Below are positions 19,625 to 62,404 of a stretch of 64,000 nucleotides of DNA, one piece after another. Within the stretch, counting starts at the first letter, position 1; each line of letters opens with the position of its first letter. A model generated the notes under the pieces. That model worked only from the letters and a program-made list of their open reading frames with translations, was not told the origin of the DNA and ran no database searches. Source of the DNA: Geosiphon pyriformis uo1 (taxonomy: Eukaryota; Fungi; Glomeromycota); contig JAAOMT010000648.1 of NCBI GenBank assembly GCA_016748015.1, positions 1-64,000 of the forward strand, read 5' to 3'. Both the position numbers and the translations under genes were made by a program.

Positions 19625-19748
19625 GATAAAATTGATTAATTATGAAAAGAGAGAATAAAGAAAATTATTTTTGGATATGGGGTTTTTATTTGTTTTTGGG
19701 TTTGGGGGTTTTTGTAATTTATTTACTATTTTTGTCTTTGTGTTTTTA

Positions 19749-21129: not shown

Positions 21130-21185
21130 TGTTGTTGATTTTGTTGTTTGTTCTGCTGTTAAGTTTGTTGGTGTTAATGTTGGTA

Positions 21186-26809: not shown

Positions 26810-26854
26810 TTTGAAGTTGTTTTTGCTGTGTTGTTTCTGTGGGAGAGCACCAAA

Positions 26855-33200: not shown

Positions 33201-36200
33201 GAATAGCTTACCAGAAGGGTTACTGGCCACCATGCTGAGAAAGAAATTTGATGGAATTGAAATTCTGAAAAGCTATAGAAAAAAACTACTACTTAAATCT
33301 CTGTCTATTATACAAAGAACTTAACTAAAATTTTCAGACAACCAAAACCTTCAGATCACTATAATCTTCAGATATTACCATTATATCAGTTATTAAGTAC
33401 CAAATTACAGATTTGTTATTTGATTTAAGACTCCAAATAATTATCTGTAATACTGTTCTTAAATTAAAACCAATCATTACAATATATACAGATACCAAAG
33501 TTGATGATCAGTTTATTAAACTGATTTTAGACAGTGAATCAGCTGGCAGCATCATTACATGATAACTTATAGATCAATTAGGTTGTCAAATTAATTACAC
33601 TGCTAGTGCCAAAATTATTACTGTTGATAAAATAACAAAAATGCTTATTAATAAGATTAATGATTTCCCATTTGAAGTTAATAGAATTATCATACCAATT
33701 AAAGTCTTTGTAATAAATGCTACCTAATATTAAGCTTTCATTGGCAATAATTGGTTAACAAAAACAAATACTATATTTGATTGGACTACACAAAAACTCC
33801 AGTTCAATTAAGACAGCAAGCATATACAAATACCAGCTACTTGTGACCACTTTAAACCAACTGTCACACAACCACTTATAGAATTTAAAAAAAAGAAAAA
33901 AAACCTATCTGAAAAGCCTACCAAGTCTTATGGGCTGACACTGACCACAACAATCTATTACCAGTATTTACATGGAAAGAAAAAAGAAAAGAGAAAAAGA
34001 AAGAAGAAGAAAAAACCCAAGCAACTATCTTTATATATATTCTATACACCACTATCACTCAAATCCAGCCAAACTATTATTGATCCAAGCTAATTTGCAT
34101 CAATTGTAACAAGAAATTGTTAACAATAGGTGCATGTTGTGGCAATAATAAAGAATAACCAATGGCCACAAAATACTACTGCCACCCATGTATCCTTGAA
34201 TGTTTTAGATAACCAAAATAACAAGACAAATAGGACTATAAGTATTGTCTTGTGTGTAAAACAATTCTTCTTGACAAAAGAATATAGAACAATATTCCTG
34301 GACAAGAAAAAACCTGTGATAAGACATGTTAATACACAATTTTGATCAACAATTAGATACAAAAAAAGACTCCAATCAACAATGCCTAGAAATAAGCACT
34401 ATAATACCTAAAAGGATACTCACACAACAAACATGAGATTTGGAGAATGGCAAGTGCTAAAGTTGAAGGTACTACTCCCAGTAAACTACTGAAAATTAAG
34501 AATAATCCATTTACATTACCTAAACCAGAGTACATTCTTACTTTTAACATCTTTGATAATATTAAAGATGATCCAAAAGAATTCTATGAACATTATCAAA
34601 ACCTAGTATTTATATGAGAGGAGTAAGAACAGCATTTAGAAAAACTAAATACTTGATTATATAATCATTGTTTAATTTCATGTAACTTCTAGTATTGTGA
34701 TAATTATGACTTTATTTACAATTTACTACCATGAATAATCTATTTAATTTCCAAAGAAGAAAAGCCAATCAGCAAGTATACAATGGAATTGAAACCAAAA
34801 TTCAATTTTGATTCAAACTCTAACAATGATAACAATGATAACAGTTTCAGCTTTGTTTAATATGACAATAACAACAGTGAAAATTTAAATTCTGATTTAA
34901 ATCTAGAATAATATATTGTGCTCCCTAATTTTTCAAAGGAGCAAGAACTTAAATGGTTCAGCAATAATAATAAAGGTATTATGCCAAAATGTGTGCATGA
35001 TACTAATGCTAAATTTGATCTGAGATATCTAAAAAAAGATGTTATTAAATTGAAACCACATTCACACACATGTATTAATCTAAAAATAGCATTGGAAATT
35101 CCAGCAACAACAATGATTCAATTAGCTTCTAGATTTAGTTTAGTAAAGAAAAAGATAAATATAAGAGGAGGAATAATTAATGCAGAATATGTAGGAAATA
35201 TTATTGCAATACTACAAAATAACTCAGAAAAGGCTTATATAATCAAGTCAAATGAAAAAATAGCACAGGCAATATTTCTACCTCTGGTTAAAGTAGCTTA
35301 ATTAGTATTAATAAGAAAAAAAGAAGAATTAGAGATAATAGCAAGAGGAATAAGTGGATTTAGATTTACAGGTAGAATAGATGTACCAGTTAATATGGCA
35401 AAAGAAAAAGTTATTGACATGAGAGAAATTATTTCCACCCATCAATTAATTTCTATTCTGTCATATAACCAGTACATGTTAGCCATAGAAAAAAAAGTAA
35501 AAAATCAAGCTCAAATTTTCAAAGTAGAAGCTACCAATTATGAATCAAGAAAAATTGGAATTACCAATCTTTACATACCAGCCAAAAGCCCTAAACACAT
35601 CAAAATTTCTATCTACAATACAATGGAAAAGATTATTGAAATACCAAGTAGAACTATCATTAGATACTTAAGCACTGAAATTGAAAACCAACTACCAAGC
35701 ACTATTTCAGATTTTTCACAACTTTGCAGATATGTGGATATTATATTACAAACAATATACAAATAAAAAAATACTATTTGCTTCAATCAGAACAATTAGA
35801 ACAAATGAACTTGGAAAACTTAGACCCACTCCAACAGATGCAGCTCAAGATGTTGCTTAACAATTTTACTGATATTTTTGCCAGTGAAAATGAATTTAGC
35901 AGAACCAACATTATCTAACATTAAATCAAGACTAGAGATGTGATGCCAATCAAACAACAAGTATACCAAGTGCTACCAGCCAGCCATAAAATCATTTAAC
36001 AAGAAATTAACAGAATGTTAGACAATAGATTAATTCAATTATCAATAAGTTTATGGTCATCACCAGTAATACCAGTCCATAAAAAAAAATCCGTTTTTGT
36101 GTGGATTATAGAAAACTCAATAGTGTAACTTATGGAGACAGCTACTCCACTCCACAAATCCAAAAATTATTTGATGCTTTTGGAAGAAAAAAATGATTCT

Positions 36201-37183
36201 CCACATTAGACTTGAATAGTAGTTACTGGCAAGTAATCATGAATTCAGCCAACAAAAAAAAAACCACATTCACTACCAAAAAAGAGAATTTTGAATTTGA
36301 AGTTATGCCCTTTGGCTTAACCAATGCTTCAACCATATTTCAATGGCTTATGGAAATTGTTTATACTGGACTGCTATGGAAATCAGTAGTCATATATTTG
36401 AATAACACTAATGTGTTCTCAAAAACATTCAATGATTATTTGCATTATCTTTAGCAAATGTTCAAAAGGTTAAGAAGAGCAGGATTGAAACTAAATGCAA
36501 CCAAGTGCTTTTTTGGCAAAACAGAATTGAAATTTTTAAGACATGTTATAAGCAAAGATGACATCAAAACAGATCCAGACAAAATTGAGATAGTCAAAAA
36601 TTTTTCAATACTCATTAACTTAACAGAACTACAAATATTCTTAGAATTTGCTAAATACTACCACCACTTTATCCAGAACTTCTTAAAAATAGCTCAACCA
36701 TTTCACTAGCTTCAAGCCAAAAATGTGAAATATGAATGGACAAAACTCAGCAAAAAGCTTTTAATATACTAAAAAAAAAGCTTATCCAAGCACCAGTATT
36801 AATCTATTCAGATTATAACAAACTATTCATTATCACCACTAATGTATTAGGCCAAATATTGGAAGCAATACTATTTCAGAAAGGACTGGATAAAAAAAAA
36901 CATCCAGTAATATATACTAGTTGCAGCTTAAGTCCAGCTGAAAGGAATTATGAAACACTTAGCTATCTATTGGGCAGTCATAAAATAGAAAAAATACTTA
37001 AGCCAGAAATTTGACATATACACTAATCACAAAAAATTAACATTAATCCAGAAACAAAAATTTGGAGATAACTGTTATGCAAGATAGAAAATAGAACTTT
37101 CACCATTCAAATATACTATACATTATAAAAAAAGAAAAAAAAATAGAAATACTAACAGTTTGTTATAAATAAAACAAATTTAA
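30284..37183 (+). pseudogene. B ORF1 relic (Gag, PR, Cys-rich, dUTPase, RT, RH), interrupted by a solo LTR
   Basis: MAYAPIAKL capsid start, CHNCGKQEH knuckle, LILDSESAGS, AKFDL/RFSL/GIINAEY/IAQAI, VMPFGLTNA, YLNN (from YLDD). Confidence 0.85.
32532..33452 (+). mobile_element. Solo LTR related to family B, inserted just upstream of B protease
   Basis: TGTTA..TAATA ends; 3' two-thirds aligns with B LTR; flanks CCAT/CTGT reconstruct to a CCGT TSD; B frame SGAVL..KPI rejoins. Confidence 0.85.
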
Positions 37184-37187
37184 AAAC

Positions 37188-38569
37188 ATTTTAACCCAAA
37201 AATATTAACAACTCTAACACTATATTAATATTCAGCAGTTCAAGAAGAAATTATCTTAAGAAGAACAAAACAACATTAAACAACAATCTAAATATTTTAT
37301 CACTTACCAAAATATATTATATTGAAAAAACAGAAAGAATCCAGATCAACCACTCAGAGTAATTACAAAATCAGAAAAAGAAACAATACTATACAACATA
37401 CACTCAGATCTGATAGCAGGATATTTTCATAAAAAAGCAACCATAGAAAGAACCAGAAAAAGATATTATTGGCCATTAATATATCCAGACATCAGCCAAT
37501 ATGTTCAAAATTGTGATGCTTGTCAGAAAAAAGGAGGAACAAGATCCAGTAAGCCATTAAAACCAATTAAAGTGGGACAACTATTTGATAGAATTGGAAT
37601 TGACTTAGTTGGATTATTAACAATAATCAGCAGAGACAACTAGTATATAGCAGTAGCCATAGACTATTTCACAAAATGGCCAGAAATGAAAGCGATTCAA
37701 AGAGCAGATAGAGAATTCATAACTGAATTTGTTTATCAAGATTTGATTTGTTGACACAGATGTCCAAAAGAATTGTTATCAGATCAAGGAACCCATTTTG
37801 TAAACAGAACATTAATAGAATTAAGCCAAAGATTTAAAATCAAAAGACTATTATTATCATCATATCATCCACAAACAAATAGTTTAATAAAAAAATTCAA
37901 TAGAACATTGTATAAAACAATAGCCAAAATCAGTCAAAAAAACCAGGATGAATGAAATTTGTTTATATCATTAGTACTATTTGTTTATTGAACAATGAAG
38001 CAAGATATCACATAAGTCATACTATTTAAACTTGTTTATGATAGAACAGCAACATTACTAGTTGAGATAGAAGTCAATATGTATCCAACTGCACCAATAA
38101 ATAAAGCCAATTTCCAAAGAACATTGCTAAAAAAACGTACAAATTAATGGAAACATTAGAAAATAAAAGATAAAAAACAGCTAATAATATTCAAAAATCA
38201 CAAGAAAAACAAAAAAAAAGACATAATAACCAATTACCAGATAAACCAGTTGAATTTAAGATTAAAAACAAAGTACTTTTATATTATACCAAAGTGAAAA
38301 AACAATGGAGTAGAAAATTTGACCCCAAATAGGACAAATCATTTCACATAAAAAAAATTCTAGAAAATGAAGCTTATAAATTAAGATGGGACAACAAAAT
38401 TTTAATTAAAACAGCACATGGTAATTAACTAAAACCATATTATAATATGGCACAATTAGCTATCAGTAATATTTCACAACTTGAAGTACAATGAATACTA
38501 ATTCAACCAGATAAGATTTCATAAGATCTGGAACCAATTATAATCATTAATTCAAATACATCCAATTGA
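37188..38569 (+). pseudogene. B integrase relic
   Basis: CDACQ, GIDLVG, LSDQGTHF, YHPQTNS. Confidence 0.85.
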
Positions 38570-39127: not shown

Positions 39128-40100
39128 TGTTACTAGACAAAATTAGAGATATTGTTTAGCATGAAATTACCCTTATAAATCTTATCATTAGTTAGCATAT
39201 ATTATCGTTTCAAATTATCACTTATTACATTAGCAAAATATATCCGAAATTATCATTTAATTAATAACCCAATTTGTACATAACACAAATGTATCCTAAT
39301 TGCAATGATCAATCATGCAATACCCTGAACTATGTAACATTCAAAAAGTTTGCCGAAATTTGTAGAAATTCGCCAAAATAATTGATAGTTCACCAAAATA
39401 TCTAATAGTTTGCAGAAATAATTTGTAGTTTGCCGAAATGTATTTTTAGTTCAGCGAAATTGTAGAAAATAGCAAAGTTTGAGTTTATAAAATAGTGTTA
39501 CAACAAGTTGTATAAAAAAAAAGTGTCTCTCTTCGAAAAAATGTATCTTACTTCAGATTTAAACAATTAGAATAATCTTTTACACCCAAAAGACAAATAA
39601 ATATCAAATAATTCAAAAAACCAAATTCTTAAATTATTTCCTTTGAAATTAACCAATTCCTACTAACAGTTTGAAATTGACTAGCTACCAATTTCAGTAA
39701 ACTGTTAAAGCACTTCCAGGTCTGGATAGAAAACGTTTTCCTTGATAAAATCCTATTTCTTTTATTTTTCTTTTATTTTCTTATTACAATCATTAGGGTA
39801 GCCTACAGATGAGATTCCTGTAGAAGAGTTGACTTTTACAGCAAAGTAACTACACATTTTTAGTAAGCTTCCAGACAAGCAATTCCTGGGAAAGAGTTGA
39901 CATTTACTACAATGTAACTACATAAAGTAACTGGCAAGGAATTGGCCATTCCACTTATAAGCCCAGCAGTTCAAATTATAAGAGATAATTTGAAGATAAA
40001 TTCAGTTATCGAAGGTTCAAACACTTCCCATAATTGTGAATTAACAGCATTACAACAAACATACAAGAGCTAAGAAGAGACCAAAAAACCTCTGGTAACA
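39128..40100 (+). repeat. 5' LTR of C (973 bp)
   Basis: TGTTACTAG..CTGGTAACA; repeat of 48363-49114. Confidence 0.95.
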
Positions 40101-40102
40101 TT

Positions 40103-40119
40103 TGGTGCTCTCTCACAGA
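40103..40119 (+). promoter_or_regulatory. Primer binding site of C
   Basis: TGGTGCTCTCTCACAGA two nt after the LTR; primer tRNA identity not assigned. Confidence 0.8.
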
Positions 40120-40145
40120 AATAACACAGCAACAACAAATTCAAA

Positions 40146-43100
40146 GTGGCGACCACACCAGACACAGCAACTCTAAAGTATTACCAGTCAATTTACACAC
40201 ACTGCAAGCAAAGATTCAACATTCCAGATGGAATTGAAGTTGTCAAAAAATCAGTCTACCAATATATTGAAAACTGCATCAACAATTATCTTTTTGGAAA
40301 CTACAACATTTCAGAAGTTAGAAGCAACCTCTACAATAATTTAGCACACTATTCACAACCAGGAACAGAAGACCTGAACAGTAAAATACTTGCTACCTAC
40401 TTCCAAGAACTTAATTTTAACATTATTGAATATTGTGAAGAAAAATACCCAGTACAGTCTAAATACTCTTTTGACTTTGAATCAGAGACAGAAACAAGCA
40501 ACAAAGGCAAACAAAAATTGAAGCAATACTCAAAAACCATTCCAAATACTCCAATACTACCAAAAACAACTGCCAAACACTTACAAACACCTAAACAAGG
40601 AACTAGTTCAAAACTTCTACTTACTATCACACCTTTTCCAGCTTTACTTGCACAAGCACAAACATCTAATTCACCCTTAAATTGATTTACAAGACTAGAA
40701 GATTTTACATCACCCAGAAGTCCCACCAGACAACAAGAACCCCTTCAAACTAGTTCCAATCTCCTTGACTTTCTAGCTGAAAATCGAAGTGAACACTTTG
40801 AGACAGCAGTGAACGAAGAAAATGACTCTGAAATATCTGAAGAAGAATCAATAGACAGTGAAAATGAAGAAGACGAAATGACAGCATATATTGCAAAAAT
40901 CTTTGAATTCAATAGAGAAGACATTAAGACCAGTCCCCAAAAATGGCTCAACCAAGTTACTAAAGCTGGAGATGCAAATGGATGGAATGCTGCCAGAATG
41001 TTAAGAACAATTTCCTACTTTCTCAAAAGAACAGCAGGTGAATGGTTCGAAAACTTGACCACTCCTTTTAATGACTGGACAGCTTTCAAAACTGTCTTCT
41101 TAGAACAATTTACCGATAACAACACCTCAATCACTCTTCGAAATTGTTTTCACAATATCAAACAAGAACCCTCCGAATCTGTTATGACTTATATTGGGAA
41201 ATTCAACAAACTTCTCAGACAAATTTGCCAACTTAAAACTAATGATTATTATTCTGATGCTCAAATCTTGGATCAATTTATTGCTGGTTTAAAGAATAAG
41301 CTGATTAAAAAGGTTTGCCCACATGCCCCAGAAGATTTAAACTCTGCCATTTAGCATGCAAAGAGATATGAAATGGCCATGAAAGAAGCCAATCGTACAA
41401 AACTCGTGAACTTAGCCATTGGAGAAACCAGCTCAGCAGCTGAAAAAAAAATTGACCAACTTGCAAAGAAAGTCAAAAACTATTTCACCAACCAACAACA
41501 ACAGCAACCCCAAAGATATCAACCATCCCAAAGACGGAATCAAAACAACTTCACATTACCCTCTAATAACCAGTCTCAGAGTTGCCATTACTATGGAATT
41601 TTTGGCCACTGGAAAAAAGATTGCAGAAAGCTACAACAAAACCAACAAAATAGGAGTAATCAACATTACCTTCCACCACAGCAATCTTATTATCAACTGC
41701 CACCACTAGCTTATCATCCACCAAGACCCCAATATCAAAGTAACTATTATTAGCCTGCCCCACAGCCAATTCAATAGCAATACCAACAACCACCCACACA
41801 ACATTATCAGGTGCCTGTTTGAAGATTAATTCTGCAAAATCAATTTACACCACAAAACCGATACCAAGTAAACAACAATAGAATCAATTCAAACAACCAA
41901 TTGGTTTTTCGAAATCCAGCTCAGCCAAGACCCACCCATTATCATACTCAACCTAGCTATCTTACAATATCTGAAGAACAAGATTTTTACCATACTGCAC
42001 TCTCGGAAGGTAAAGCTGCAGCATGACAACAAAGCTCTTTCTATACTCCTACCACAATCCCATTAGCCAGAATTGCTGAAAATGCCAACCTTTCAGACAT
42101 ATTCTTTTTCAAATTTGAAGCAAATGAATCACTATTCTTGCTTAGCAATGCAGCGGCTAATGAACAAAAAGCAATCATGGCTATGTACACTGAAGCAGAA
42201 GTTGAAGAAAAGACAATTCGCTTGATCCTAGACAATAGATTTGCTGGAAGCATTATCACCTACCAGTTAATGCAACAGTTAAAGAGAAATGTCGACCAAC
42301 CAGCTCAAACAGTAATTGTTACTGCCGATGGCATGAAAAAGACTCCAGTAAGAGAAATTGACAATTTTCTGTTCATTCTTGATGGAATCATCATTCTAGT
42401 CAAAGTTCTTGTAATGGACACACTCCAGTATCAAGCCCTTGTCGAAAATAATTGGCTCCAAAAAGCCAATGCAAAATTAGACTGGGAAACCCAAGAATTA
42501 CAACTCTCCTATCAAGGACAACATACCCGAGTACCCACTACTTGTGGTACATTCAACAAATGCTCTGAAAAAGCCCCAGCTTTTGAATTCGAACCAAAAG
42601 AAGAAAAACCAATAATCAAAACATTCATGGCTCTTGGATCAATGTCCAATTGGGCTGACAAAACTGAACAAGAACATTTTACACCATACTCTAAACCCGA
42701 AACCTCTGGATGAAATATCCCTTACTCAAAGTCTGAACCAAAAAAACAACGCCCTTACATTCCCCTTAAATGTAAGGACTGCCACAAGAAACTATCATCA
42801 ATGGGAGTCTGCATTTCACCTGAAAAAGAATATAAAAATCATACTTGTTACTACTACAAGGCTTGCCACAGAGAACAATGGGGCCATCTAATAAAAAGAA
42901 GTGGAAAATGGGACAACACTCCTTGTTTAACTTGTGGAGATATACTACTAGAAAAATACAATTAGATTGATGTAGCAATGAGAGAAGGAGTCTGTGATCA
43001 AATCTGCCAATATGCTTTATTAATTTCAGAAAAAGTCAAAGGAGGAACACCCTTTGATGCAGCATACAAAAGTGTTCTCAACAAACTGTACCATTACCCT

Positions 43101-46100
43101 CATGATGCTGAAATAATTTTTGACCTAGCAATGGCTTTAATCAACAGAGGCACTTAAGAAAATGTTCATTAAATGAAAGAATCAGAATACATTGCATACA
43201 CTTTTGAAATCACTGGATACAACTATGAAAATAAAATAGAAGTATATCACCAAATTGCCAGTCACACTTACCCGACCAAAGAAGCTCAAACTCAATGGCT
43301 AGAGCAAATGAATGTTAAATTGTGTGAAGAATGCATAATGCCCTGCGATGAGTAATGGTGCCCTGAATGCTATGCTCTTAGCATTCCCCTGCCCAGTAAA
43401 AACAATGAAAACAAAATTGAATTTGAAGAACTTGAAGCAACAGAAGAAATTGAAACAACACCCATCTATCTTATCAAAAGTCAGCCTGTCTTACAACTCA
43501 AATACTTTAACAACAACGGACAAGAAATAAAACCCGAAAAAGCACATGAAATTGATGCTGGATATGACCTAAGATATCTAGACAAGGATATTCTTGTTCT
43601 TAAACCCAAATCTCTCACAAAAATTAACCTCAAAATTGCACTCAAAATCCTGCCAGAAGCAATGGTTCAAATCACTTTCCGGTCCTCTCTGGCAAGCAAA
43701 AGAATCAATGTCAGAAGAGGAATAATCAATGCTAGATATACAGAAGATATTACAGTGATGTTTCAAAATGAAACTGACAAACCATTCAAAATCAAATATG
43801 CTGAAAAAATTGCCCAAGCTATTTACCTACTCCTAATCAACATTTCGGGTTTGCAACTAGTCAATCAAAGAGAACAATTAGGAAAAAGCGATAGAGGAAC
43901 CCAAGATTTTGGTTCAACTGAATGATTCACAGTTCCAGTTAATATAGCTTTTAACACACAGAACAAATCTCACCAGATTCTCAGACTTCCACAATCAATT
44001 ACCATCTCACCCTTTGAAGAACATCCGGAAATCTACACCTGCCCAAAGCCAACAACCACACAACAAATTTTCAAGTCCAATGAACAAGTCTGCTTGAAAC
44101 ATAATATTTTGATCCTAAACATTTATATTCCAGAAAGAACAAAGAAAGTCTGAGTTACTTTTTACAATCCCAACAATTATCCCATAGTTCTATTAAATAA
44201 CTTAGAAATTGGAGTCATTCACAGTAACATCTTTCAACAAGAACTACCCCAAACAGTCCCCAATTTTTCGGAAATCATTGGACATTCACTACCAAAAATC
44301 AACCCAAACCCTAGCTCTGAAAACTATCATGTTGTTATGGAAAAATTATCTCGAATCAACATGGGACAACTTGAACCACAACAACAGAGCCAGCTCAAAG
44401 AGCTAATTGCAGAATTTGCTAATATCTTTGCTGAAAACAACAATGACTTAGGAAGAACCAATTTGGTCCAACACCAAATTTATACAGGAGATGCCAAACC
44501 AAGAAGACAACAAGCATATTGAGTTGCTCCAGAAAGCCACCAATTCATTCAAAAAGAAGTACAACAAATGCTTAACAACGGGTTCATCCAACCCTCCATG
44601 AGTCTTTGGGCTTTACTTGTAGTGCTAGTTAAAAAGAAAAATAGAAAGATACGATTTTGTGTTGACTACCGACAACTCAATAGTGTTACAATTGGAGATG
44701 CCTACCTCCTTCCCTGAATTGATGACATGTTAGATGCCCTTGGAAAATCCAAATACTTTTCAACACTAGATTTAGAAAGCGGTTACTGACAAGTTGCTAT
44801 GGATCCCAAAGATCGCCCCAAAACAGCATTCACCACCCAAGGTGGAAATTACAAGTTCAATGTAATGCCTTTCAGATTATGCAATGCACCAGCAACGTTT
44901 CAGAGATTAATGAATATTGTGTACTAAGGACTTCTTTGAAAGTCAGTAGTCGTTTATCTTGATGATACTGATGTTTATTCTCTATCATTTGAATTACACT
45001 TAAAACACCTGTGAGAAGTTTTTCAATGATTACAAAAAGCAGGACTAAAACTCAACATCAAAAAATGCTACTTTGAAAAAACAAGCTTGGCCTTCCTTGG
45101 TCATATTGTTAATAAAGATGGAATCAAACCAGACCCTGGAAAAATCAGTGCTGTCAAAAACTTCAAAACTCCTCGAAACACTACAGAACTAAGAGGATTC
45201 ATAGGATTAGCCTCCTACTATCGGAAGTTTATTAAAAGATTCTCAGAAATCACAAAACCTCTCAACCAGCTTACCACCAAAAACATCAAATATGAATGGA
45301 CTGCTGAATGCCAAAATGTATTTGAAATCCTCAAAGAAAAACTAATGACAGCTCCAATTCTTGCCTATTCAGATTTCAGTAACTGATTCTGATTAGCAAC
45401 AGATGCCTCTTATACTGCCTTTGGTGCTATTCTATCACAATTGGATGACAATGGAAATAAACGAGTAATCGCCTATGCAAGCAGAACATTAAAACTAGCT
45501 GAGAAAAATTATCCTGCCACAGAACTAGAAACAGCAGCCATAATCTGGGCCCTACACCACTTCAACTTTTATCTCAGANNNNNNNNNNNNNNNNNNNNTA
45601 TTAAAAGATTCTCAGAAATCACAAAACCTCTCAACCAGCTTACCACCAAAAACATCAAATATGAATGGACTGCTGAATGCCAAAATGTATTTGAAATCCT
45701 CAAAGAAAAACTAATGACAGCTCCAATTCTTGCCTATTCAGATTTCAGTAACTGATTCTGATTAGCAACAGATGCCTCTTATACTGCCTTTGGTGCTATT
45801 CTATCACAATTGGATGACAATGGAAATAAACGAGTAATCGCCTATGCAAGCAGAACATTAAAACTAGCTGAGAAAAATTATCCTGCCACAGAACTAGAAA
45901 CAGCAGCCATAATCTGGGCCCTACACCACTTCAACTTTTATCTCAGACCTAAAAAATTCGATATTATTACTGATAATATTGGACTCAAATGGCTTCAGAA
46001 CAAAAATACTCAGCTGAACGCAAAACAAACCCAATGAACAGGATTTCTAGCAAACTATCGATACATAGTACATCACAAACCACAAAAACTCTACACCAAT

Positions 46101-46133
46101 GTTGACTGTCTCTCCAGAATGAGACAAGATTAG
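40146..46133 (+). pseudogene. C ORF1: extended Gag, PR, Cys-rich domain, dUTPase, RT, RNase H in one frame
   Basis: All ORF-track fragments from 40146 to 45810 share one frame, broken only by point nonsense codons; DAGYDL, RSSLA, IAQAI, RGTQDFGST; VVYLDD; ATDAS..ELE. Confidence 0.92.
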
Positions 46134-46184
46134 AAAACACAAAAACCAACACTCAACTTAACCAACCAAAACAGCCAACAAACA

Positions 46185-47564
46185 ATGAATTCGGAAAACT
46201 ACAACAATCTCAAACAATATTTGGAAACATTAACAATCTCAACAGATTGGTCTCCAGATGAAAAACATCAATTACAACAACAAGCCAAACAATATTTTCT
46301 ACATAACAACATTATTTATCATCGAAATTTCAAAAACCCAGACAAACCACTCAGATTAATACAAGAACAGGAAAAAGAGACTATATTATACAACATGCAC
46401 TCAGATCCTTCATCAGCACACTTTGGAAAAGACAGCACCACCCAAAGAACACTAAAATACTACTTTTGGCCTCGAATGAGAAAAGACATTCATGAATATG
46501 TCGAATTTTGTGATAGTTGTCAAAGAAGAGGAGAAAAACACTCTACTAAACCATTAAATCCAATCAAAGTTGGACAACCCTTCAACTGAATTGGTATTGA
46601 TTTAGTCGAACCACTATCTATTACCACTCAAGGAAACTGTTATATTGCAGTAGCTGTAGACTATCTTACTAAATGGCCCGAAGCCAGAGCCATTCAACAA
46701 GCAGATGTGAAATCAGTAGCAAATTTCATCTATAAAAACATCATTTGTAAACATGGATGTCCAATTAAACTTTTATCCGATCAGGGAACACACTTTGTGA
46801 ACAACCTGATACAAGAAATTTGTGAATGATTCAATGTCAAAAGACCTTTGTCTTTGCCTTACCATCCACAAACAAATAGACTTGTGAAACATTTTAACAG
46901 AACATTGTGTGAGTCATTAGCCAAAGTCTCAACCAATTTTGAGCAAAAGTGGGATATCTTTATTCCATCAGTATTACTAGCATATAAAACACTAAAACAA
47001 GATACCACAAAACACACATTATTTGATTTAACTTATAGAAGGACATTACCAATTAGTTTTACAGTGAAAACATACTCAGCACAACCAATTAATAAAAACA
47101 ATTTTCAGGAAACACTACAATGAAGAGCCTATACTCTGCTTAGCACATTGGAAGAAAAATGACGAATAGCAGCAACTCATATTGAACATTCTCAAGCTCA
47201 ACAAAAAGAAAAACATGACAACAAATTACCACCTATTACCAACGAATTTAAAGTTGGAAATAAAGTTCTCTTACACAGAACTAAAGCTGAAAAACAATGG
47301 AGTGGAAAATTTGAAAATAAATGAGATGGACCATTCTTTATCCATGAAATTCTAGGCAACGGATCATACAAGCTAAGACTTGATGACAAAATCCTAGCAA
47401 AAGTTGCACATGGAAATTGTTTGAAACACTATAATTCCAGAAACAATCCTGAACCATTAATTCCACAAATTGGCACACATTCCTCTTTAATCAATCCCGA
47501 AGATATTCCCCAGAATTTAAAACCAATAGTTGTCATTAAACAACCTCCCAACTTGAACACTTAA
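46185..47564 (+). pseudogene. C integrase ORF with its own ATG, 459 aa, no chromodomain
   Basis: H..AHFG..CDSCQ, GIDLV, SDQG, YHPQTN, DGPF. Confidence 0.9.
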
Positions 47565-47686
47565 TTTAAATTTATTATTATAGTTATCTTCTTATAATTT
47601 AGAAACAATCTCACAAAAACAAAACAAAAATAACATAAAAACTCATACACCAAAAATAATTTTCTTTTATTTTCAAATCTCTTAGA

Positions 47687-48394
47687 ATGACTATTCCTCA
47701 AAACATTTAACAATTAGTCCAAAAACTAATGTTAGCTTTAAAAACAATACCTGAATTATCTATTACTATTACTAGAAACCACATTAATTATACCCAAACA
47801 GAAGTAGTCACAAATTCACGAAAATATCACCCATATAAGAAGAACACAAGAAGTTATTCTGAAATTCACCTGCCAGAACTTTTAAAGCTTGCTTTAAGAG
47901 AAAACTTAATGCTCACTCCTATTAGTATTCCACCAAATACTACTATTCAACAAAAACTTCAACTGTGTATTAATGAAGAAAACTATGACTATACTCCAAT
48001 ATATAGATATTTCTACATTGGAAAAACACTTCATGAATGAAAACGAGAGCTTACAGCAGCAAACCTCACAAAAGAAGCTATTCAGAAACAACTCCACAAT
48101 GAATTCAAGACAACAGCTGGACCTACAAACAGTCATTATAAACTAAGAGCTGTTCTTAGACTTTATGACTTATTCCACACCTGTGAAAACGTCCTACAAA
48201 ACCCAATTTTACAGCCTTTGAAGATTCAATATATTGGAAAGCTTACAGAACTGAAATTTCAACAATTTTCAAACCAAATTTCTTCAATAATTTTGGATTA
48301 TTATCTGGAAATTACAGACAGTACTTGGACTTTGATGGAGCTCAGTCTTGAGGAGGAGGTTATGTTACCAGACGAAATTAGAGATATTGTTTAG
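47687..48394 (+). pseudogene. C ORF3 (env-position accessory ORF, 235 codons, two nonsense mutations)
   Basis: ATG 47687, same frame through to ELSLEEEVMLPDEIRDIV* inside the 3' LTR; homologous to A ORF3. Confidence 0.78.
48350..48359 (+). promoter_or_regulatory. Polypurine tract of C
   Basis: GAGGAGGAGG three nt before the 3' LTR. Confidence 0.8.
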
Positions 48395-49114
48395 CATGAA
48401 ATTACCCTTATAAATCTTATCATTAGTTAGCATATATTATCGTTTCAAATTATCACTTATTACATTAGCAAAATATATCCAAAATTATCATTTAATTAAT
48501 AACCCAATTTGTACATAACACAAATGTATCCTAATTGCAATGATCAATCATGCAATACCCTGAACTATGTAACATTCAAAAAGTTTGCCAAAATTTGTAG
48601 AAATTTGCCGAAATAATTGATNNNNNNNNNNNNNNNNNNNNNNNNNNNNNNNNNNNNNATTCCTACTAACAGTTTGAAATTGACTAGCTACCAATTTCAG
48701 TAAACTGTTAAAGCACTTCCAGGCCTGAATAGAAAACGTTTTCCTTGATAAAATCCTATTTCTTTTATATTTCTTTTATTTTTCTTTTATTTTCTTATTA
48801 CAATTATTAGGATAGCCTACAGACGAGATTCCTGTAGAAGAGTTGATTTTCACAGCAAAGTAACTACACATTTTTAGTAAGCTTCCAGACAAGCAATTCT
48901 TGGGAAAGAGTTGACGTTTACTACAATGTAACTACATAAAGTAACTGGCAAAGAATTGGCCATTCCACTTATAAGTCCAGCAGTTCAAATTATAGGAGAT
49001 AATTTGAAAATAAATTCAGTTATCAGAGGTTTAAACACTTCTCATAATCGTGAATTAACAGCATTACAACAAACATACAAGAGCTAAGAAGAGACCAAAA
49101 AACCTCCAGTAACA
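48363..49114 (+). repeat. 3' LTR of C (contains assembly gap 48622-48658)
   Basis: Repeat of 39128-40100. Confidence 0.92.
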
Positions 49115-49991: not shown

Positions 49992-52900
49992 ATATCATTT
50001 CAGCAGAATTAGCACTCTTTAAGAACTTATTTGTGTAAATCTTAATATAATTAGACCAAATCTTTATTAGATTATTATAAACATCAGAGAATGTCTCAAA
50101 TTCTAATACATTTAGCACCAACAATTCAGAAGTATTAGCAAACTTAATCTTTAAAAAAACATACTTATTCATAAACTCAGCTGCCAGAGTAAACCAATAA
50201 AATACAGAGTTTCTTGGATCCAATCTCTTCTACCATCAAAATGTTTTCCAGTTCATCACCTTTCCTTTTTTGTTCAAAAGTCTATCACCAAAAGCAACAC
50301 TAAATCACTTCAAAAAAAGAACAGAATTGTAATATAAGGAACATTTTAAGATGTCAGACATCAGAAATCTGTCAGATCCATAAAAAACACTAGGCAAATT
50401 GTTTATTAAAAATAGCTTATTTTCCATAAAGATTTTTACTACACCAGCCAAAAAATTATTCACCAAACTAACCCACAACTTAACAAAAATACTGTAAAAG
50501 ATTCAAAAAAAACCATTCCAGAACTTGTAAATCCAAAAATCTATGTTCAAATAAACATCCAAAAATGCCATAAGCATTGAAAAAAAAAACCAGTGAGACC
50601 AACTTTCTTTCAAATTGCATTTGCTCAAAAGGTTTTAAACCATACAAAGAAGAATGATACAAAACTTTACTGAAAAAATCATATGGCAAACCAACCCTAA
50701 ATTTAAGACTTTTTCTAATTATAATGTCCTACTTGTGACACAAACTTGATGAAACAAAACTAAACTGCATCTGATAGCTAACTATGAGCTAAAAAACATC
50801 TGAAACCAAGTAAGAAAATTGTTTATCTGTAATAGCTTTTTTAAGCACCACATTAAAGAAAAATTAACATTTATATAAGCTTAAGCCAAATTAGGCTTAG
50901 AGAAACTCTCTGTAAACAAAAAAATGCTCAAGTATCTGTGTAATTTACTCTGTTTAGCAATTGAAATTGGCAAATTATTAATCAAAAGTGAGGTGGTCTT
51001 GACACTCTAATTGATAAAAATAGTTACTGTCTTATTATTATTAATGGAAATGTTATTAATAACAAAAAACTTATTGGTAATATCTAAAATGTTCTGTATG
51101 AAAGTTTGACAGCTCTCAACCCAAATTGTGTTATCAACAAAAACACCAGCAGCCAAAAAAAAAGTTTTCCCTTTAATAACCTCAACTTTGCCAGTTTTTG
51201 TCACAAACTTTATATTAATACAGTAATTACATAAGTGTTTATGTCTCTTAACTTCACACAAAAGCAAATCATAGAATATTTGCTAAAGAAGAGAAAAAAA
51301 AATCTTATCTTAATCTAAATTATTACGATCTTATAACTATTTAAGAATCTAAAATCTGTTATTATTTTGTTGATCTAATCCTTATGAATACTACCAAAAA
51401 ACTTGATAAACTAATTGCATATCTTAATACAGTGCAAATTAATCTTCAAATAATGCTAATCTACTGAATTATAAGCTTTGTACATGTTCTATAACACCAA
51501 TCAAAGTTTTCTATTCTTCTTTAAAGCATTCTCAACAATTAAACCAACAGCAAAAATAGGAGACTAAGTCAAAGTATTTTTCAATACCAAAAAATTATCA
51601 CCACAAAAAACATTAAATCTGCTACATGCTAACAATATTCAATTAGAAAAAATCTTAAACAAGATTTTTTAGGTAGTTTCAATCAGTACAATAGGCCTAG
51701 TATTGGTTAAGACATTATTCCATTTATAAAGTTTTGAGATCATTGAAACTCATGTTCTCTTTCAAGGAATTGGAATTGCATCCAAAATTAAGCATAAATT
51801 CAATAACTTTAAAAGACAAGCCAACATTTTATTACTATAGTGCTTCTAAAGTTCATTAGGTATCTCTAATAATCTGACAGTTTTATTGATTGACAAATCA
51901 TTAATAACCAAAAACAGCTCTTTTATATCAATTTTCTTTATCATACCAGAAAAAACATTATCATTAACATAATCCAAAGGCATATATTAATAAGACTAAA
52001 GATCAGACATTTTTGGAAGCACTGTCTGCTTCCTTGTTTACTTTTTTATAATCTCATCTACTTTAAGCTTTACCTTATCAGACTTGATTATCAACTTATC
52101 TTCAACTATCAAGTAATCCAAAACAATCTTGCAAAATAGATATTTAAGAATACTTTTGATCATTTGCCCCTTGTCAAAACAAAAATTTTCTATGTATTGG
52201 TCAATTACTTTCCTAATGGCTGTATTTTTAGATGTTTTTAACTTAAAATACTTGGATTTCTGATACTTTTTTCTAATTATTGACAAGTGTTTGACCAGAT
52301 CTATTAAACTTACATCAATCAGAATCATGTTAGCAATCTTAGATGCCTCAACTTTATCAATATCCAACCAAATTCTAATAAGACAGTTAAAATCTAGAAG
52401 ATCTTCAAAATTCCAAACTTTTACAATTTTTACAATAAGTAGCTTCAATTTAAAAATTTTTGAAGATTGTTTGTTTTTCAAACAATCATATTTACTATAT
52501 CAATCTCTAAAAAACACCACATTAGTAGCTTATATTATAATATTTTTTAGCATTATCCACATTGTATTCAAATTACCATTGTTTTTTGCATTTTCAAATA
52601 TGTTTAACTTTATTAATAACTCAGCAAAAAATCACTTTTTAAAATGCAATCAATGAATTTCATCTGCATTTCTCAACTTGAATTTTTACTGGTTTCAATT
52701 GGTTTGTTTGCAAACACTATTAAGATAAGTATTTAAGAGTTTTTTCAACTTAATTACAACCAAAACTGCCTTATAATCTGTATCAAAAAACTCTGACACA
52801 TTATCAACTTTATGCAATATAATTGTAAATACCAATTTTTCACTTACAAAAACAAAATCTAGTACCTTTTTAATGCTGTTACCAGAAGATTTTTACACTT

Positions 52901-55900
52901 TTCAATGCAAAATTTACAACATATACAATGAAAATTAACATCAAAATCATGTGAAAAAAACCTATATCATTGCACTTAATCAACAAAATCAGCCGGCAAT
53001 TTGAGAATAAATAATCAGCAATCAATTCAATTACAACAAAGAAATATGGCACAATCCAACAGTTTAACTAAGTTGGATACAAAGAAATCTTGGCAAACTA
53101 AAAAACACCAATGGAAATGAATGATTAATGCATGTAATCAGATAACAACAGGTTTTATTATGCTCTAAAATTCTCATATGCCCTTATTGGAACAATCTAA
53201 CATTCCAGATTTGCGATTAATGATTAAAAGTAGTTACCAAGAAATGTAATCAATTGATCTACTTCTGATTATGTTGATTATAATCACAATTGGTATCATT
53301 GATTTACAATCAATGTTCTAGATTCAGCCATCTAAATTTGATTATCTAAATTACTAGCTCTTAAATGAATAACAGGATGAGTAAGCTCATCATAAATTGA
53401 TTAATTAAATGTATATAAATAATTGATATATTTTAAATATTTCTAATATAGTATGTAGATTTGATGTAATTTAGCTATATATATAGCCCTTCTGTCAGCT
53501 CAGGAAAGTATTAGTTCAATATTGAACCAACTCTTTACTATAGTTTTATAGTGAGCAGTTAGTTTTTTTCTCTACTTCTTACACTTTTTCTCCCTTTTTT
53601 ATGCTCTAAATACTTGTCATCACAATCTCAAGTATGTCTTCCCATATTCCTTATCACTATTTGGAATTATGTTGTTTATAATCTTTTACTTACTTGTTAT
53701 CACTATTTCAAGTTGTTCTATTACTTCCAATCTTTTAAATTATGTGTTATCACTATTTCACATTAAGTCTTGTTTTACTGAACAAGTTGTTAAATATAAA
53801 AATAAGTAATAAAGTATTATATTATTAGAGAGTGGTCTCAACAATAAAAAGTTTAAGCAAAATCTATTTTAGTTATGTTTGACTTTCATAATTCCTTTTA
53901 TAATTCCTATAACTTCATTTTTAAAGCAGGCATTTGAACACTACATCTTTTCGATAACTAATTGAAAAAATTCTGGTTATAATTTTCTTAAGTAGTTTTG
54001 GTTTTTTCTTGTTGCTGGTTGCACTTCTGATACATATAAAAAGATGTGACTTCTTTTTTCCCTTTTTCTAATACCTAAGACTGATTCTTGCCTAAAAACA
54101 AATAATAATGACAATACTTTCTTTCACTTTTAATAACTTTATTATGTACCCCTTTTGCTTTCCCACCTATTGAAATAGTCTATACACTCATAATATGCTA
54201 TAGTTAGTAATATAATCATGGTAATGTGTGTTCTAAGTGAAAGTTATTGTCATTGCTAAGAAATTACAAATCTGTAGCTTTCACCTGGTAACAATGCTCT
54301 TAAAATTGCTTTAAGTAGAAGCTTTAGTCAATGAATATCTACTGAAAGTATTAACCAGACCCAAATTCAAACAGAACTTAAAGCTTGCACTCCTCTTAGA
54401 TTTATTTTTATTAAAGTTACTACTAACAACTGTGAAAGAGCTAGAATTAACTGCTTTAAAGATTATGGAGTTAATATCAGAAGCTTGGCTAAAACATATA
54501 CTAATAAATACACTAGCATATAGATCCAAAATCATAACCAAAAGCTTGTTTTTAAACAAAAAATGCACAGAAATCAACTAACACAGAATCTTATCCACTT
54601 TTAAAACATACTGAGCCAAAGAATTGTTCATAATTATGGCAATCTCAGCACCAAAAAAACCTACATCCAAACCAGAAATGAAAACCTGAATTCTATCAAA
54701 CTTATTCATAATTCACAACCTAATATTAGATCTTAATTTTGTTTCTATAACAATTAAAACCATATTTCCTGATTTTCTATGCCAATGAACAACATCTTTC
54801 TGCTTGGCAAAAACATTGATACTTTGAACATTGCATGTAGTGACTTTTTAGACCAATTCACTTATTGATGGAAAAAAAATACCAGAAAACCCAGGCCAAT
54901 ACACAACAGATTTAATTTCACCAGAATTGAACCAACAGGGGCTTTAAGAGCCACCAATTTCGACTCCAAGCACTCCATTTTAGTAGTCAAAACTTTCAAA
55001 CTACTTGAACCCAAAACTAGAACACTAGATAAAACAGAAGAAGGAAACAAAAACGGTAACTTGGAACCATCTAAAATCATATTTGCACTTAAATTTACAT
55101 TGGTAGCCAATAAAATAGCCAAGACATAAGAAGAGAAAAGAGAAGCTAGAAGCACTAACTCCATATTATTGAGTTTGCACATTAACCCAGAAATCTAATT
55201 CATTAAAAACTTCAGAAAATATTCCAAAAAAGCTAACTGAGTATTTAATAATGGGACATCAGTTGAGATGGAAAAAAAACTATTACTCAAATCTAAAGCA
55301 TTAGATAAAGGAAAACCAGAACCAAAACTAAAATAAGAACCACCAAAAAAAGAAGCAAGTAAGACTATTTATGTCTAAGACTTGCCACTAAAAGCAGTAG
55401 AATAAGAAATAGAAACACTTTTTTTTGCATACAACTTTGTTAACTGAAGATAACATTCTTCTGAAACAACTCTTTTAATGGTTTTTAAAGGCTTAGAAAT
55501 GAACATAATCAGTATATTATATTTCAAAGCAGAATGACCAAAATGTTTATACTTCTTACAACAAACCAAATCTAATCTAGCCCAAGACAGTTTTACTTTA
55601 CCAAAGACAAACTTTGTACAAAAAACTGAATCCAATTTTTTATCAAATTCAAAGCTAACCACAGCACAGCAAATCCTATTGTCTGTATCCAATAAACAAT
55701 TTATGATGCAAGTTTTCTTACTAGTCCTTTTTAAAAGAGTTCCAAGATTATGTACAGTTATTCTTACTAACAAAGTAAATAAAAGCACCCTAAACCAATT
55801 TTTTAATGCCCAAATATTACAATCTCTTATGGTTTTGACTACATGCACAAAATTTTTCCTGATAAAAAATGACTATCTTATGGCCAATAGATTAGCTTGA

Positions 55901-56862
55901 CTTGATTCGGCAAATTTCACCATAGTCTTTTATTATATTCCAATTAACTGAATTTTGATTGACACAATTTAACCAAACTCAACAACTGCAGTGATGATTA
56001 TTTTTTTAGACATATTCATAAGAATTTTCTTGATTATTACAGCCCAATCTGAATGCATTCTTTGTCTTTTGAAATCAGTATTTATGATAATCTCTTTTTT
56101 TTTAACCAATAATATGGCTTTCTCCATGCTTTTTTTTAAAGTGAAGATAGATCTGATAATCTTTTCAAATTTTAAGGAGATAGTAGCTCTTCTTAAAACC
56201 ATTGACTAATAAGAACAATTTTTTAACAACTTGAATTTTTGCTATAACAGATTTTTTTTCTATAGCACTAAGATTAATATTAAAAGCAAAAAATTTTTTA
56301 ATAGACACTTCAACTTGAATTTTGATAATTTTTGAGTCAATTCACTTTCTGTCAAAAAATATCTTAAAAGGAAGAGAGAGAATTCTATTATCTTTATTTA
56401 TGTTATAATCGATTGAGCTGAAAAAAGAGTTACAAACCAGATTAGTATTAATTTTTTTAGCTTTAGGGATGTTTGTTGCTAAACTGAGAAGAGAATTATT
56501 GTCAATACCAAATATAATATCATCATTTTCACTATTGCCAAATACACTGTCTATATCTGAATATATATTACCACCAGGACTAGATTTGGTTAAGAAAATA
56601 TCTCTTTTGTCTTCTAAATACTTAACATTACCAACTAAAACTTTTTTCTTTTAAAAAAAAGAACTCCCAATAGGACTATGAAGAACCTTCTTAAACGTCT
56701 TTTTTTTAGACATAGCATTGCCTAAAGCAGCAGCCAGATTCATCACAAAAGAATTATTTGATTAAGAAATATTTGTAAAAAATAGCAAAAAAAAAATAAT
56801 AACTTTTTTTTTCAAAAAATTTGCTCTTTTAAAAAATTTGGAAATAAGAAAGAAAGAAGTTT
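49992..56862 (-). mobile_element. LINE-c: 5' UTR, ORF1 (56713-54862), EN, RT, ending at the start of RNase H; split by solo LTR D
   Basis: 5' end aaCTTCTTTCT, MSKKK start, VTTCNV, VLDFVFVS, VFVDNTIW, IYTNK. Confidence 0.85.
52877..54293. mobile_element. Solo LTR D (1417 bp) of another Gypsy family
   Basis: Perfect TGTTACCAG..CTGGTAACA ends, ATGC TSD, no ORF; LINE-c EN frame rejoins across it. Confidence 0.82.
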
Positions 56863-56869
56863 TTTACTT

Positions 56870-58950
56870 TTATAAACTATTATTATAATTTAAAATTTAT
56901 TAAAAATCATAAATAATATAAATTATTCAATCATAATATAGTATAATAAAAATTTTAAAAAAGTAATAATTTATATTACAAAAATTATTAAATAATATTA
57001 ATAACAAATATTATCTTGTAATAATAATAGTTAATATTATTAATAATAAAATATTATAATATATTATCTTATATAATTACAAATATATATATATAATAAT
57101 TTTAATATTGAAAAAAAAAATTTTAACTTTTATTTATATATTTTATTTTAATATTATCTAAATAAAATATTTAATATTTAAATAAATTTTTAATTAATTA
57201 AAAAATAAATTTTTAGCATTAAAAATCAAATTATTGTTACAAATTTATTATAAAATTTATTTGTACTTATTTTTAAATAAAATTATTATTTATTAGTTGA
57301 ATTATTTAGAAAAATAATTTTTGAATAAAATTACTTATGTTATTATTAATTAAAAAAAAATATTAAAAAACATTAATATTAAAAAAAAACATTTTTATAA
57401 TAATACTATTAAACAATTTTTACAATTGTAAATGTTTCACTAATAAAAATACTATTAATTATTTTAAATAATAAAAAAATTGTTATCTTTTTACTCTTTA
57501 TTTTAGTTGTAATTATAAAAATACAGAAAAAAAGAAATTTATTTTTAATTTTTATTATTAATTTAATAAATTATTTATAATTTTTATTAATTTATATAAT
57601 CTAATATAATTAAATACTATAAATTATATATTAAATTAAAATATATAATATTAAATATTCTAACAAAATAAAATAATTTAAAAGTTTTAATACTTAAAAT
57701 TAATATTATTCATTAAAATATTTTTGCTTAAATTATAATTAATAAAAACCAAAAAAAATTATTTATTATAATATAAATTAATAATTTTAAAATTGGTTTT
57801 AATATATAAAATTTTAAAAATAGTTTAAACAAAATTTTTTTGAGTTTTAAATTAAAATAATAATATTATAATTAAAAATATTAATTTTTTACATAAATTA
57901 TAACTTTTAAAAATTTTAAATTAGTTGCAATTTTTTAAAATTTAATATATTTTATTATTAAATACTATTTAAAAAAACAAAATATTTTTGTTAATATATA
58001 ACAACAAATTTAGAAAAATTTTCAAAATAAAAACAACAAGTTTTAAAATTTGTAAAAAACAAAACAACAAAAAACATTTAGACAAAAACTGGTTATTTTT
58101 ATTAAATTTAAATTAATAACAACTATTTTTAAACATATATATATATTATAATTTGTAATAATAATTAGATTATATTTAATAAAATATGCTAATGTTTTTT
58201 TAAATGCTTTAAATTATTAACCAATTAATACAATTAAAAATATTTTAAAATTTAAATTAATTAATTATAAAATAAAACAATATATTTTTTATAAATTAAT
58301 TACAAATAATTAATAACAAAAAATTTAAGTAATCGTTTTGATTTTATCAATTTTTTATTTTGGTTTTATGAAAATAACAAAATATATATGACATTTTAAA
58401 GTAAATATTGTGTTTTTTATAATATCAAATTAAAAACATTAAAATTTTATTTATGTATTTGTATAAAATTATAACAAGTTAATTAAAATAAAATTCTTAT
58501 TTTTGAAAAACCTGTTTTAAATAATATATTAAAATGCATGAAAAAAGATTTTATAGTTTGTAATAATTGATAATATTGTATTTTTTTGTAATTTTTTAGT
58601 TGTTAATTTTAATGTTAGATTCTCAATTACAGTTTGAATTTTATAACATAATAACCAAATGCATGCCATAAATAACAGATAATATAAAATATTATCTAAC
58701 CAACAATTAAAGCATCCAAAACAAGTTTTTGTTAAATAAATATTTTAATATACATATTGATTAAATATATAAAAAAAATTTTTTACATTTTAAATTAAAT
58801 TAAATTAAATTATGAAACGCATTGTTTTTTGTTAGTTTTTACTAAAAAAAATCATTAGATATTAATTTGGAAAACAATTTAACTCATTCTTTAAATGATA
58901 ATTTTTCAGCACGAATTAAATATAAATGTTTGGGAATTTGAAAAATTTTA
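56870..58950. other. Extremely AT-rich non-coding tract
   Basis: Very few G or C, no ORFs. Confidence 0.8.
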
Positions 58951-59118
58951 TGATGAAATATTTGTAATGAACTCATGTTTATCTCAAAATGGATGATTAA
59001 CCAACTTAGTATTAATCACCCAAATTGGTGCGAAATATTACATAATCTCGAAGTTATCCCGCAAGTCCAAACATAGTTAGATGCTTAAAAAATTTTCGTC
59101 TCGAAAATGATGCCTTAA

Positions 59119-60310: not shown

Positions 60311-60549
60311 GAGTATCTGAAGGTATTCCTTTTTCAAGACTTCTAAAAACTAAAACTATCTTAAAGCTTTAAATTTTCAAGGAAAAGTGAAGGACGAGGG
60401 ATGGTGTGAAAACCGAGAACTATTCGCTTCGAGTTTGGATTGTCTTATGATGGTACCAAGAAAATTTCAGCCACTGAATGTTTAAATTGGGGTTAGTTCC
60501 ACCAGTTTAGGTTTTCTCGATTCAAAATTACGGTTTTTTCCTAAGGAAA

Positions 60550-62400: not shown

Positions 62401-62404
62401 AAAA

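Follow-up and report, generated by a model that had tools for sequence, protein, structure and literature searches.

In canonical Ty3/Gypsy retrotransposons, such as yeast Ty3 and Tf1, the integrase forms the C-terminus of the Pol polyprotein, from which the protease frees it, and in textbook long terminal repeat (LTR) retroelements and most retroviruses it enters the particle as part of Gag-Pol. The stretch of DNA analyzed here (the window) comprises 64,000 nucleotides (nt) from the fungus Geosiphon pyriformis uo1, positions 1 to 64,000 of the forward strand of contig JAAOMT010000648.1. Self-BLAST reveals in it three related LTR retrotransposon copies, A, B and C, in which a stop codon stands between RNase H and integrase. 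Is this stop a product of decay, or does the lineage encode its integrase separately, and if so how is the enzyme made? We find that the split is very probably an inherited, functional trait. The integrase would be a separate cistron behind a single open reading frame (ORF) for gag, protease, dUTPase, reverse transcriptase (RT) and RNase H, and the sequence features of the junction point to production by termination and rescanning on the full-length RNA, a reading to which we assign a probability of roughly one half.

The junctions and the elements that carry them are as follows.

46131 to 46133, forward strand: TAG stop of C ORF1, four codons past the RNase H motif LSR (...NVDCLSRMRQD-TAG)
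46134 to 46184, forward strand: C spacer of 51 nt, A/C-rich and ATG-free, not conserved among family copies
46185 to 47564, forward strand: C integrase ORF (H2C2 zinc finger, rve core, SH3), with 5 internal stops
21127 to 21188, reverse strand: A junction, with TAA at 21188-21186, a 56-nt ATG-free spacer and acaATG at 21129 in another frame
37181 to 37183, forward strand: B stop TAA at the aligned junction codon (...NSLL*IKQI-TAA)
40125 to 46133, forward strand: C ORF1, comprising gag, protease region, cysteine-rich stretch, dUTPase, RT and RNase H, with 24 internal stops
39656 to 49114, forward strand: element C, a full-length, decayed LTR Gypsy copy (self-BLAST)
39656 to 40100 and 48659 to 49114, forward strand: LTRs of C, 93.2% identical over 456 nt
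17968 to 27304, reverse strand: element A, a full-length copy with about 75% nucleotide identity to C over its whole length
17968 to 18420 and 26855 to 27304: LTRs of A (self-BLAST)
About 31190 to 38440, forward strand: element B, divergent and heavily decayed, with 64-67% nucleotide identity to C

The C integrase starts at acaATG (46185) in the same frame as ORF1, begins MNSENYNNLKQYLETL and ends with a TAA at 47562. ORF1 of A ends ...NIDSLSKMRQY-TAA. Both copies thus show an ORF1 that closes after LSR and an integrase that opens at the homologous Met (M-D/N/E-x3-Y), the arrangement that characterizes the split clade described below. B shares it in part, having kept the stop and lost the Met codon; integrase homology restarts about 5 nt past the stop in the +1 frame, leaving almost no spacer. 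The distance of 51-56 nt between stop and start in the C and A family is unlike junctions in which the two overlap as ATGA or ATGAATAA. On re-reading the sequence, the positions at which the initial annotation had placed a stop at one aligned codon (46131 in C, 21188 in A and 37181 in B) were all correct, as were its frames and starts for the integrase (in frame after 51 nt in C, shifted after 56 nt in A, +1 without an intact ATG in B). The ORF1 ends that it gave for C and B stand, whereas the LQRMRQY given for A has to be replaced by LSKMRQY. The spacer that it called AC-rich and unconserved is A/C-rich in C, and the family contigs show that other copies carry different spacers.

Judged by their LTRs, domain order and integrase type, the window elements are Ty3/Gypsy. 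Direct LTRs flank the coding region (the two of C are 93% identical, and A is likewise bounded by a pair), and the order gag, protease, RT, RNase H, integrase is retained. With stops read as X, Pfam recognizes Retrotrans_gag, dUTPase, RVT_1 and RT_RNaseH in C, then Integrase_H2C2, rve and SH3_Tf2-1; a protease match is weak in C and clear in the relative L010. The departure from the family pattern is that the integrase does not lie inside the pol polyprotein: in the window family and in intact relatives it is set off by a stop, a spacer and its own ATG. A tblastn search with the read-through protein of C found no fourth copy in the window.

Stops are numerous in all three copies. A codon-register alignment of 2327 codons contains 30 of them in C, 38 in A and 87 in B, and two codons are stops in every copy: the junction (codon 1888) and codon 1638 inside RT (45012-45014 in C), which reads TGA, TGA and TAG. 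Codon 1638 is a decay or mutational hot spot, since five intact relatives have a sense codon there (K, R, R, E and R). The initial annotation had argued that random decay could not hit one codon in three copies; because codon 1638 is also a stop in all three, this statistical argument is weak and, taken by itself, unsound. Many of the C stops read TGA against AGA, CGA or TGG in A. In a pile-up of family contigs, transitions dominate the differences between copies (C to T at 34 places, G to A at 30, T to C at 24 and A to G at 15). The stop pattern and the transition excess are consistent with methylation-driven decay of these elements.

Two independent lines of evidence, the family pile-up and the intact relatives, set the junction apart from such hot spots. 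The pile-up was built from Logan contigs of one DNA run (X1), in which the family is present at very high depth; at a likeness of at least 80%, 3660 contigs cover 45950-46700 and 230 cover 46085-46215, 138 of the latter being less than 95% alike, with a reporting threshold of 2%. The TGA of C at 46035-46037 is private to that copy, since G stands at 46037 in 52,999 of 54,693 depth (97%), giving TGG. At the TAG of the junction (46131-46133, depth about 81,500) and at the ATG (46185-46187), by comparison, no alternative letter reaches 2% among the 230 contigs, and only five places within 46085-46215 vary (46115, 46124, 46128, 46140 and 46172). Ten contigs diverge at 46132, where the next letter is A, giving TAA and then a different spacer; loose contig ends at 46132-46139 and at 46176 represent other spacers in other family copies. 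Two contig joints (46006 to 46194 and 46191 to 46287), each seen in one contig and with non-canonical ends, were discounted as chimeras or differences between copies. Stop, spacer and initiator Met are fixed in the window family. The initial annotation had named a CAA, CAG or TGG consensus at the junction codon as the outcome that would speak against it; the family consensus there is a stop.

The same organization is found in relatives. We searched proteins with the RNase H and integrase of C (query P0002; targets of 339-1080 amino acids (aa); 2236 matches at E ≤ 1e-10). Of the best 120 matches, 119 consist of integrase only; they come from metagenomes and Rhizophagus irregularis, and their median length is 418 aa. 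The homologous Met (MNSENY in C) is present in 101 of these 119, as the exact start in 96 and behind a short extension in 5; the remaining 18 begin further in. The best named relatives are Rhizophagus proteins at 42-45% identity, and it is only these proteins that suggest the label Glomeromycotina for the lineage. The five closest ORF1 proteins (54-58% identity) contain no integrase domains and end 1-6 residues past LSR, the ends of the closest RT-RNase H relatives being SLSRIQTPSY, SLSRIH, SLSRIRT, ALSRL and SLSRIR. Just one joined protein occurs among the best 120, the R. clarus gene model P0004, which runs RT-RNase H into integrase over 940 aa. It omits query residues 135-219 (about 85), which hold the end of RNase H with LSR, the stop, the spacer and the integrase N-terminus, and this gap looks like a gene-prediction intron. 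P0004 is publicly named a KRAB-A domain-containing protein, an annotation that masks the split. In a library-wide protein search the top scores went to long fused polyproteins at 28-37% identity; matches above 37% were all integrase-only (P0003 at 51%, P0149 at 43% and P0185 at 39%), and no fused relative exceeded 37% in that search.

Nucleotide relatives were drawn from 80 metagenome loci with an integrase alignment, 38 of which show both RNase H and integrase; a scan of viral contigs gave three distant loci that were not used. The 10 closest of the 38 are split (L001, L002, L003, L008, L010, L013, L015, L019, L020 and L023), 19 more distant ones are fused in one ORF, and 9 are decayed or ambiguous. 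All 10 split loci have an RNase H without internal stops, an ORF1 stop after ADALSR and then an ATG-initiated integrase beginning M-D/E/N. ORF1 ends 3-4 residues past ADALSR in five of them and 10-23 residues past it in three, and the spacers measure -8, 30, 62, 63, 74, 89, 110, 163, 365 and 727 nt. Eight integrase ORFs are complete and unbroken, at 418-433 aa with the exception of L023 at 542 aa; those of L015 and L020 are cut short. The most complete case is L010, where an uninterrupted ORF1 of 1479 aa (gag, zinc knuckle, protease, RT, RNase H) is followed by an intact integrase ORF and a third ORF.

On an integrase tree of 79 rows, from a quick IQ-TREE search, a clade of 34 rows (Shimodaira-Hasegawa-like approximate likelihood ratio test 95) unites window C, the 10 split loci, 10 split-like loci and 13 loci left unassigned, and contains none of the 19 fused loci. 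All 21 split or split-like rows fall inside it, 10 of them by weaker criteria: in six of the ten split-like loci an upstream stop and a Met were looked for, L038 is decayed, and L005, L012 and L018 were labelled by match coordinates alone. A single change on this tree accounts for which loci are split and which are fused. The view put forward in the initial annotation, that the integrase is a separate ORF throughout this lineage, is supported by the intact relatives, by the conserved Met and by the exclusion of fused loci from the clade.

There is no fixed frame relation between ORF1 and integrase: the spacer length is a multiple of three at only 3 of 15 junctions (C, L002 and L013), where the initial annotation had taken lengths always divisible by three as a sign against its view, and at 8 of 10 junctions the stretch from the ORF1 stop to the ATG contains a further stop in the integrase frame. 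What the junctions share is that the integrase ATG is nearly always the first past the ORF1 stop. The 12 spacers of up to 200 nt, those of C and A included, contain 1 ATG against 13.1 expected, and the last 100 nt of ORF1 contain 36 ATGs across 13 loci. Between integrase and ORF3 the pattern is repeated, with no ATG in the 560 nt of seven spacers against 6.4 expected. Most start codons have A or G at -3 and G at +4. Of the features associated with reinitiation, a downstream start that is the first AUG past the stop is found at the 12 short spacers and at the integrase-ORF3 junction, whereas a start that overlaps the stop or lies within a few nt of it is absent from C (51 nt) and A (56 nt) and seen only in B (about 5 nt) and L020, where the two overlap as ATGGATAA. 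The integrase/ORF3 junction of L009 is an ATGA overlap. Spacer composition is mixed: those of C, A, L001 and L023 are A-rich and G-poor, those of L002 and L003 are T-rich, and that of L002 contains no AG dinucleotide.

These features favor a route in which ribosomes would terminate at the ORF1 stop and resume scanning on the full-length RNA to the next AUG, the integrase start. The grounds are the ATG-free spacers, the ordinary ATG content before the stop, the ATG-free spacers between integrase and ORF3, and the overlapping or short junctions. Rescanning would be predicted to yield little integrase relative to Gag and RT. The enzyme would have to be brought to the particle or the cDNA by some means other than covalent linkage to Gag, a consequence that follows logically from the split itself. 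Several considerations weigh against rescanning. Reinitiation past an ORF of about 1900 codons is normally very inefficient; no upstream structure was detected in the 90 nt before the stop (mean folding z-score -0.09, 13 loci), and the calicivirus-type TGGGA motif occurs at 1 of 13 loci, other kinds of signal not having been searched for. Two long spacers have an ordinary ATG content (L008, 365 nt with 7 ATGs; L019, 727 nt with 12 ATGs), the expected ATG counts come from mononucleotide shuffles only, and the relatives are metagenome contigs. An ATG-free spacer would be no less expected as the 5' leader of a subgenomic mRNA.

This last point leads to the most substantial competing route, in which the integrase, perhaps with ORF3, would be translated from a subgenomic mRNA whose promoter or splice acceptor would lie inside the element, near the 3' end of RNase H, just as env is made from a subgenomic mRNA in retroviruses and errantiviruses. 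We regard this as possible, if doubtful. The conserved Met and its good initiation context are, like the ATG-free spacers, what a short leader calls for, the ATG-bearing spacers of L008 and L019 are easier to explain by an independent transcription start, and the failure to find a reinitiation helper element is in its favor. However, the ATG-free zone begins right at the ORF1 stop, with ATGs ordinary just upstream; in L013 (30 nt), B (5 nt) and L020 (overlap) the junction is too tight for a promoter or leader to lie outside ORF1; the L002 spacer lacks the AG dinucleotide; and the pattern at the integrase-ORF3 junction would demand a second subgenomic RNA. It appears improbable that ribosomes enter the full-length RNA internally, at the spacer. 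A-rich, G-poor sequence can recruit ribosomes in yeast, and four of the spacers (C, A, L001 and L023) are of that kind. A putative internal ribosome entry site between the ORFs of mouse L1 is also mentioned in a review (PMC11485995). Against this, the spacers differ from one another in sequence, in length (-8 to 727 nt) and in composition, strong ATG depletion is not needed for direct entry, and B and L020 have essentially no spacer for a ribosome to enter.

An RNase H-integrase fusion might still be made, by readthrough, frameshifting or a spacer intron, and the integrase would then be packaged as usual. C and L002 keep one frame, broken by a single stop with none further in the spacer, and the R. 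clarus model P0004 does join RT-RNase H to integrase. Yet so few junctions are in frame, and so many have an integrase-frame stop before the ATG (L013 has two in-frame stops), that we consider continued fusion very improbable; the shortest spacers (-8 to 30 nt) could not hold an intron, the joint in P0004 is itself suggestive of a predicted intron, and fusion gives no reason for the Met to be conserved. Least credible of all is that decay happened to strike one mutable codon in three dead copies, so that the shared stop would serve no function. The triple stop at codon 1638 and the dominance of transitions among the copies lend this idea what plausibility it has, but a stop is the family consensus at the junction codon, intact relatives have a stop at the same place and a sense codon at 1638, and the split state is confined to one clade.

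The window elements resemble canonical Ty3/Gypsy elements in their LTRs, in the order gag, protease, RT, RNase H, integrase and in the H2C2, rve and SH3-like domains of the integrase. They are unlike them in that the integrase stands apart, behind a stop and a spacer of any length and frame and with its own Met, and in that a third ORF follows. A dUTPase between protease and RT has been described in PosPlaTy3-5 of Postia placenta, and dUTPase-bearing fungal elements also in Phanerochaete and Tuber, in one report (PMC2864245); the window elements place their dUTPase as PosPlaTy3-5 does. Our literature searches, which did not extend to subscription journals, Repbase or GyDB, turned up no account of a Gypsy element that encodes its integrase separately, and the available portion of an R. 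irregularis transposon preprint makes no mention of one.

By analogy, the split elements would work most like the bicistronic LINE-1, and the overlap variants like RNA viruses that use a stop-restart mechanism. LINE-1, whose ORF1 is short, likewise has two cistrons on a retroelement RNA with a short, stop-bearing spacer between them, the enzyme would be scarce in both cases, and rescanning has been proposed. Translation of LINE-1 ORF2 after ORF1 is attributed to an unconventional, AUG-independent reinitiation in a review (PMC11485995). LINE-1 is a non-LTR element, and the window elements differ in being LTR elements with an ORF1 of about 1900 codons and a conserved downstream ATG. Among the stop-restart viruses, victoriviruses use AUGA, hypoviruses UAAUG, and caliciviruses and influenza B a termination upstream ribosome-binding site. 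B (5 nt), L020 (ATGGATAA) and the L009 integrase/ORF3 junction (ATGA) resemble these in starting at or just past the stop, while C (51 nt), A (56 nt) and relatives with up to 727 nt do not, and no upstream structure or 18S-complementary motif was detected. With foamy viruses, which make Pol from its own spliced mRNA and package it without a Gag-Pol fusion, the elements would share the entry of a retroelement enzyme into the particle without covalent linkage to Gag. The foamy virus strategy separates the whole of Pol, whereas here only the integrase is separate and RT is still fused to Gag.

Beyond the integrase lies the third ORF, at the following positions in C and A.

47565 to 47686, forward strand: C integrase-ORF3 spacer of 122 nt, without ATG
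47687 to 48394, forward strand: C ORF3, with two internal stops
About 19624 to 18926, reverse strand: A ORF3, with 66% amino-acid identity to C ORF3

ORF3 has no Pfam family and no Atlas match. Mutually related ORF3 proteins of about 145-230 aa follow the integrase in eight relatives (L003, L006, L009, L010, L011, L017, L019 and L026), and BLAST shows no link between these and the ORF3 of the window. The three-ORF organization claimed in the initial annotation is supported both by the conservation of ORF3 between A and C and by the presence of an ORF after the integrase in these relatives. We tentatively picture an old fungal Gypsy lineage with a tricistronic genomic RNA, on which ribosomes would stop and rescan twice and from which trace amounts of integrase would be made and recruited non-covalently to particle or cDNA.

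In one subclade ORF1 runs on for 300-590 residues beyond RNase H before its stop. The extension amounts to 314 residues in L010 and 586 residues in L019, and in L006, L011 and L022 an upstream ORF like the L010-type extension is followed by a stop and then the integrase Met. The ORF1 C-terminal extensions are located as follows.

L010, 3497 to 4438: ORF1 C-terminal extension
L019, 4513 to 6270: ORF1 C-terminal extension
L006, 2 to 541: ORF1 C-terminal extension
L011, 1 to 345: ORF1 C-terminal extension
L022, 189 to 464: ORF1 C-terminal extension

The L011 and L022 extensions have in common a Cys/His-rich motif, C..C...H.C.IG.G.GQ. None of the extensions has a Pfam family or an Atlas match; a FIN1 match of L019 (E = 0.007) fell below the cut-off and was disregarded.

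Some further features of the window concern the assembly and its other contents.

45579 to 45598 and 48622 to 48658: N gaps inside C

In the RNase H region of C, 45599-45947 is an exact copy of the 349-bp block 45230-45578 on the other side of the 20-N gap, and the repeat looks like an assembly artefact. Directly upstream of the C 5' LTR, the 259 bp at 39128-39386 are 97.7% identical to the end of the C internal region (48363-48621), which suggests a tandem or recombined array of two C-type elements sharing an LTR, or a mis-assembly. The cysteine-rich stretch of C between protease region and dUTPase (42700-43400; for example CKDCHKK...C..C...) has no Pfam match. Further stop-to-stop ORF runs with strand-skewed composition, unmatched by the C polyprotein, occupy 4500-12100 (forward strand) and 52000-64000 and are probably other repeat families.

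A large and long-lived clade with a detached integrase poses the questions of how a ribosome reaches a cistron behind about 1900 codons and how a free integrase finds the reverse-transcribed DNA. With spacers that range from overlap to hundreds of bases, the clade is a natural variant series. Annotation pipelines either enter such integrases as separate 'integrase core domain' genes or fuse them by means of invented introns, which affects the element counts and gene sets of these fungi; the clade's named relatives are in Rhizophagus, arbuscular mycorrhizal fungi. Separate dosing of the integrase may limit damage to the host genome. The tricistronic stop-and-rescan strategy, if true, would be a mode of replication not described for LTR retroelements.

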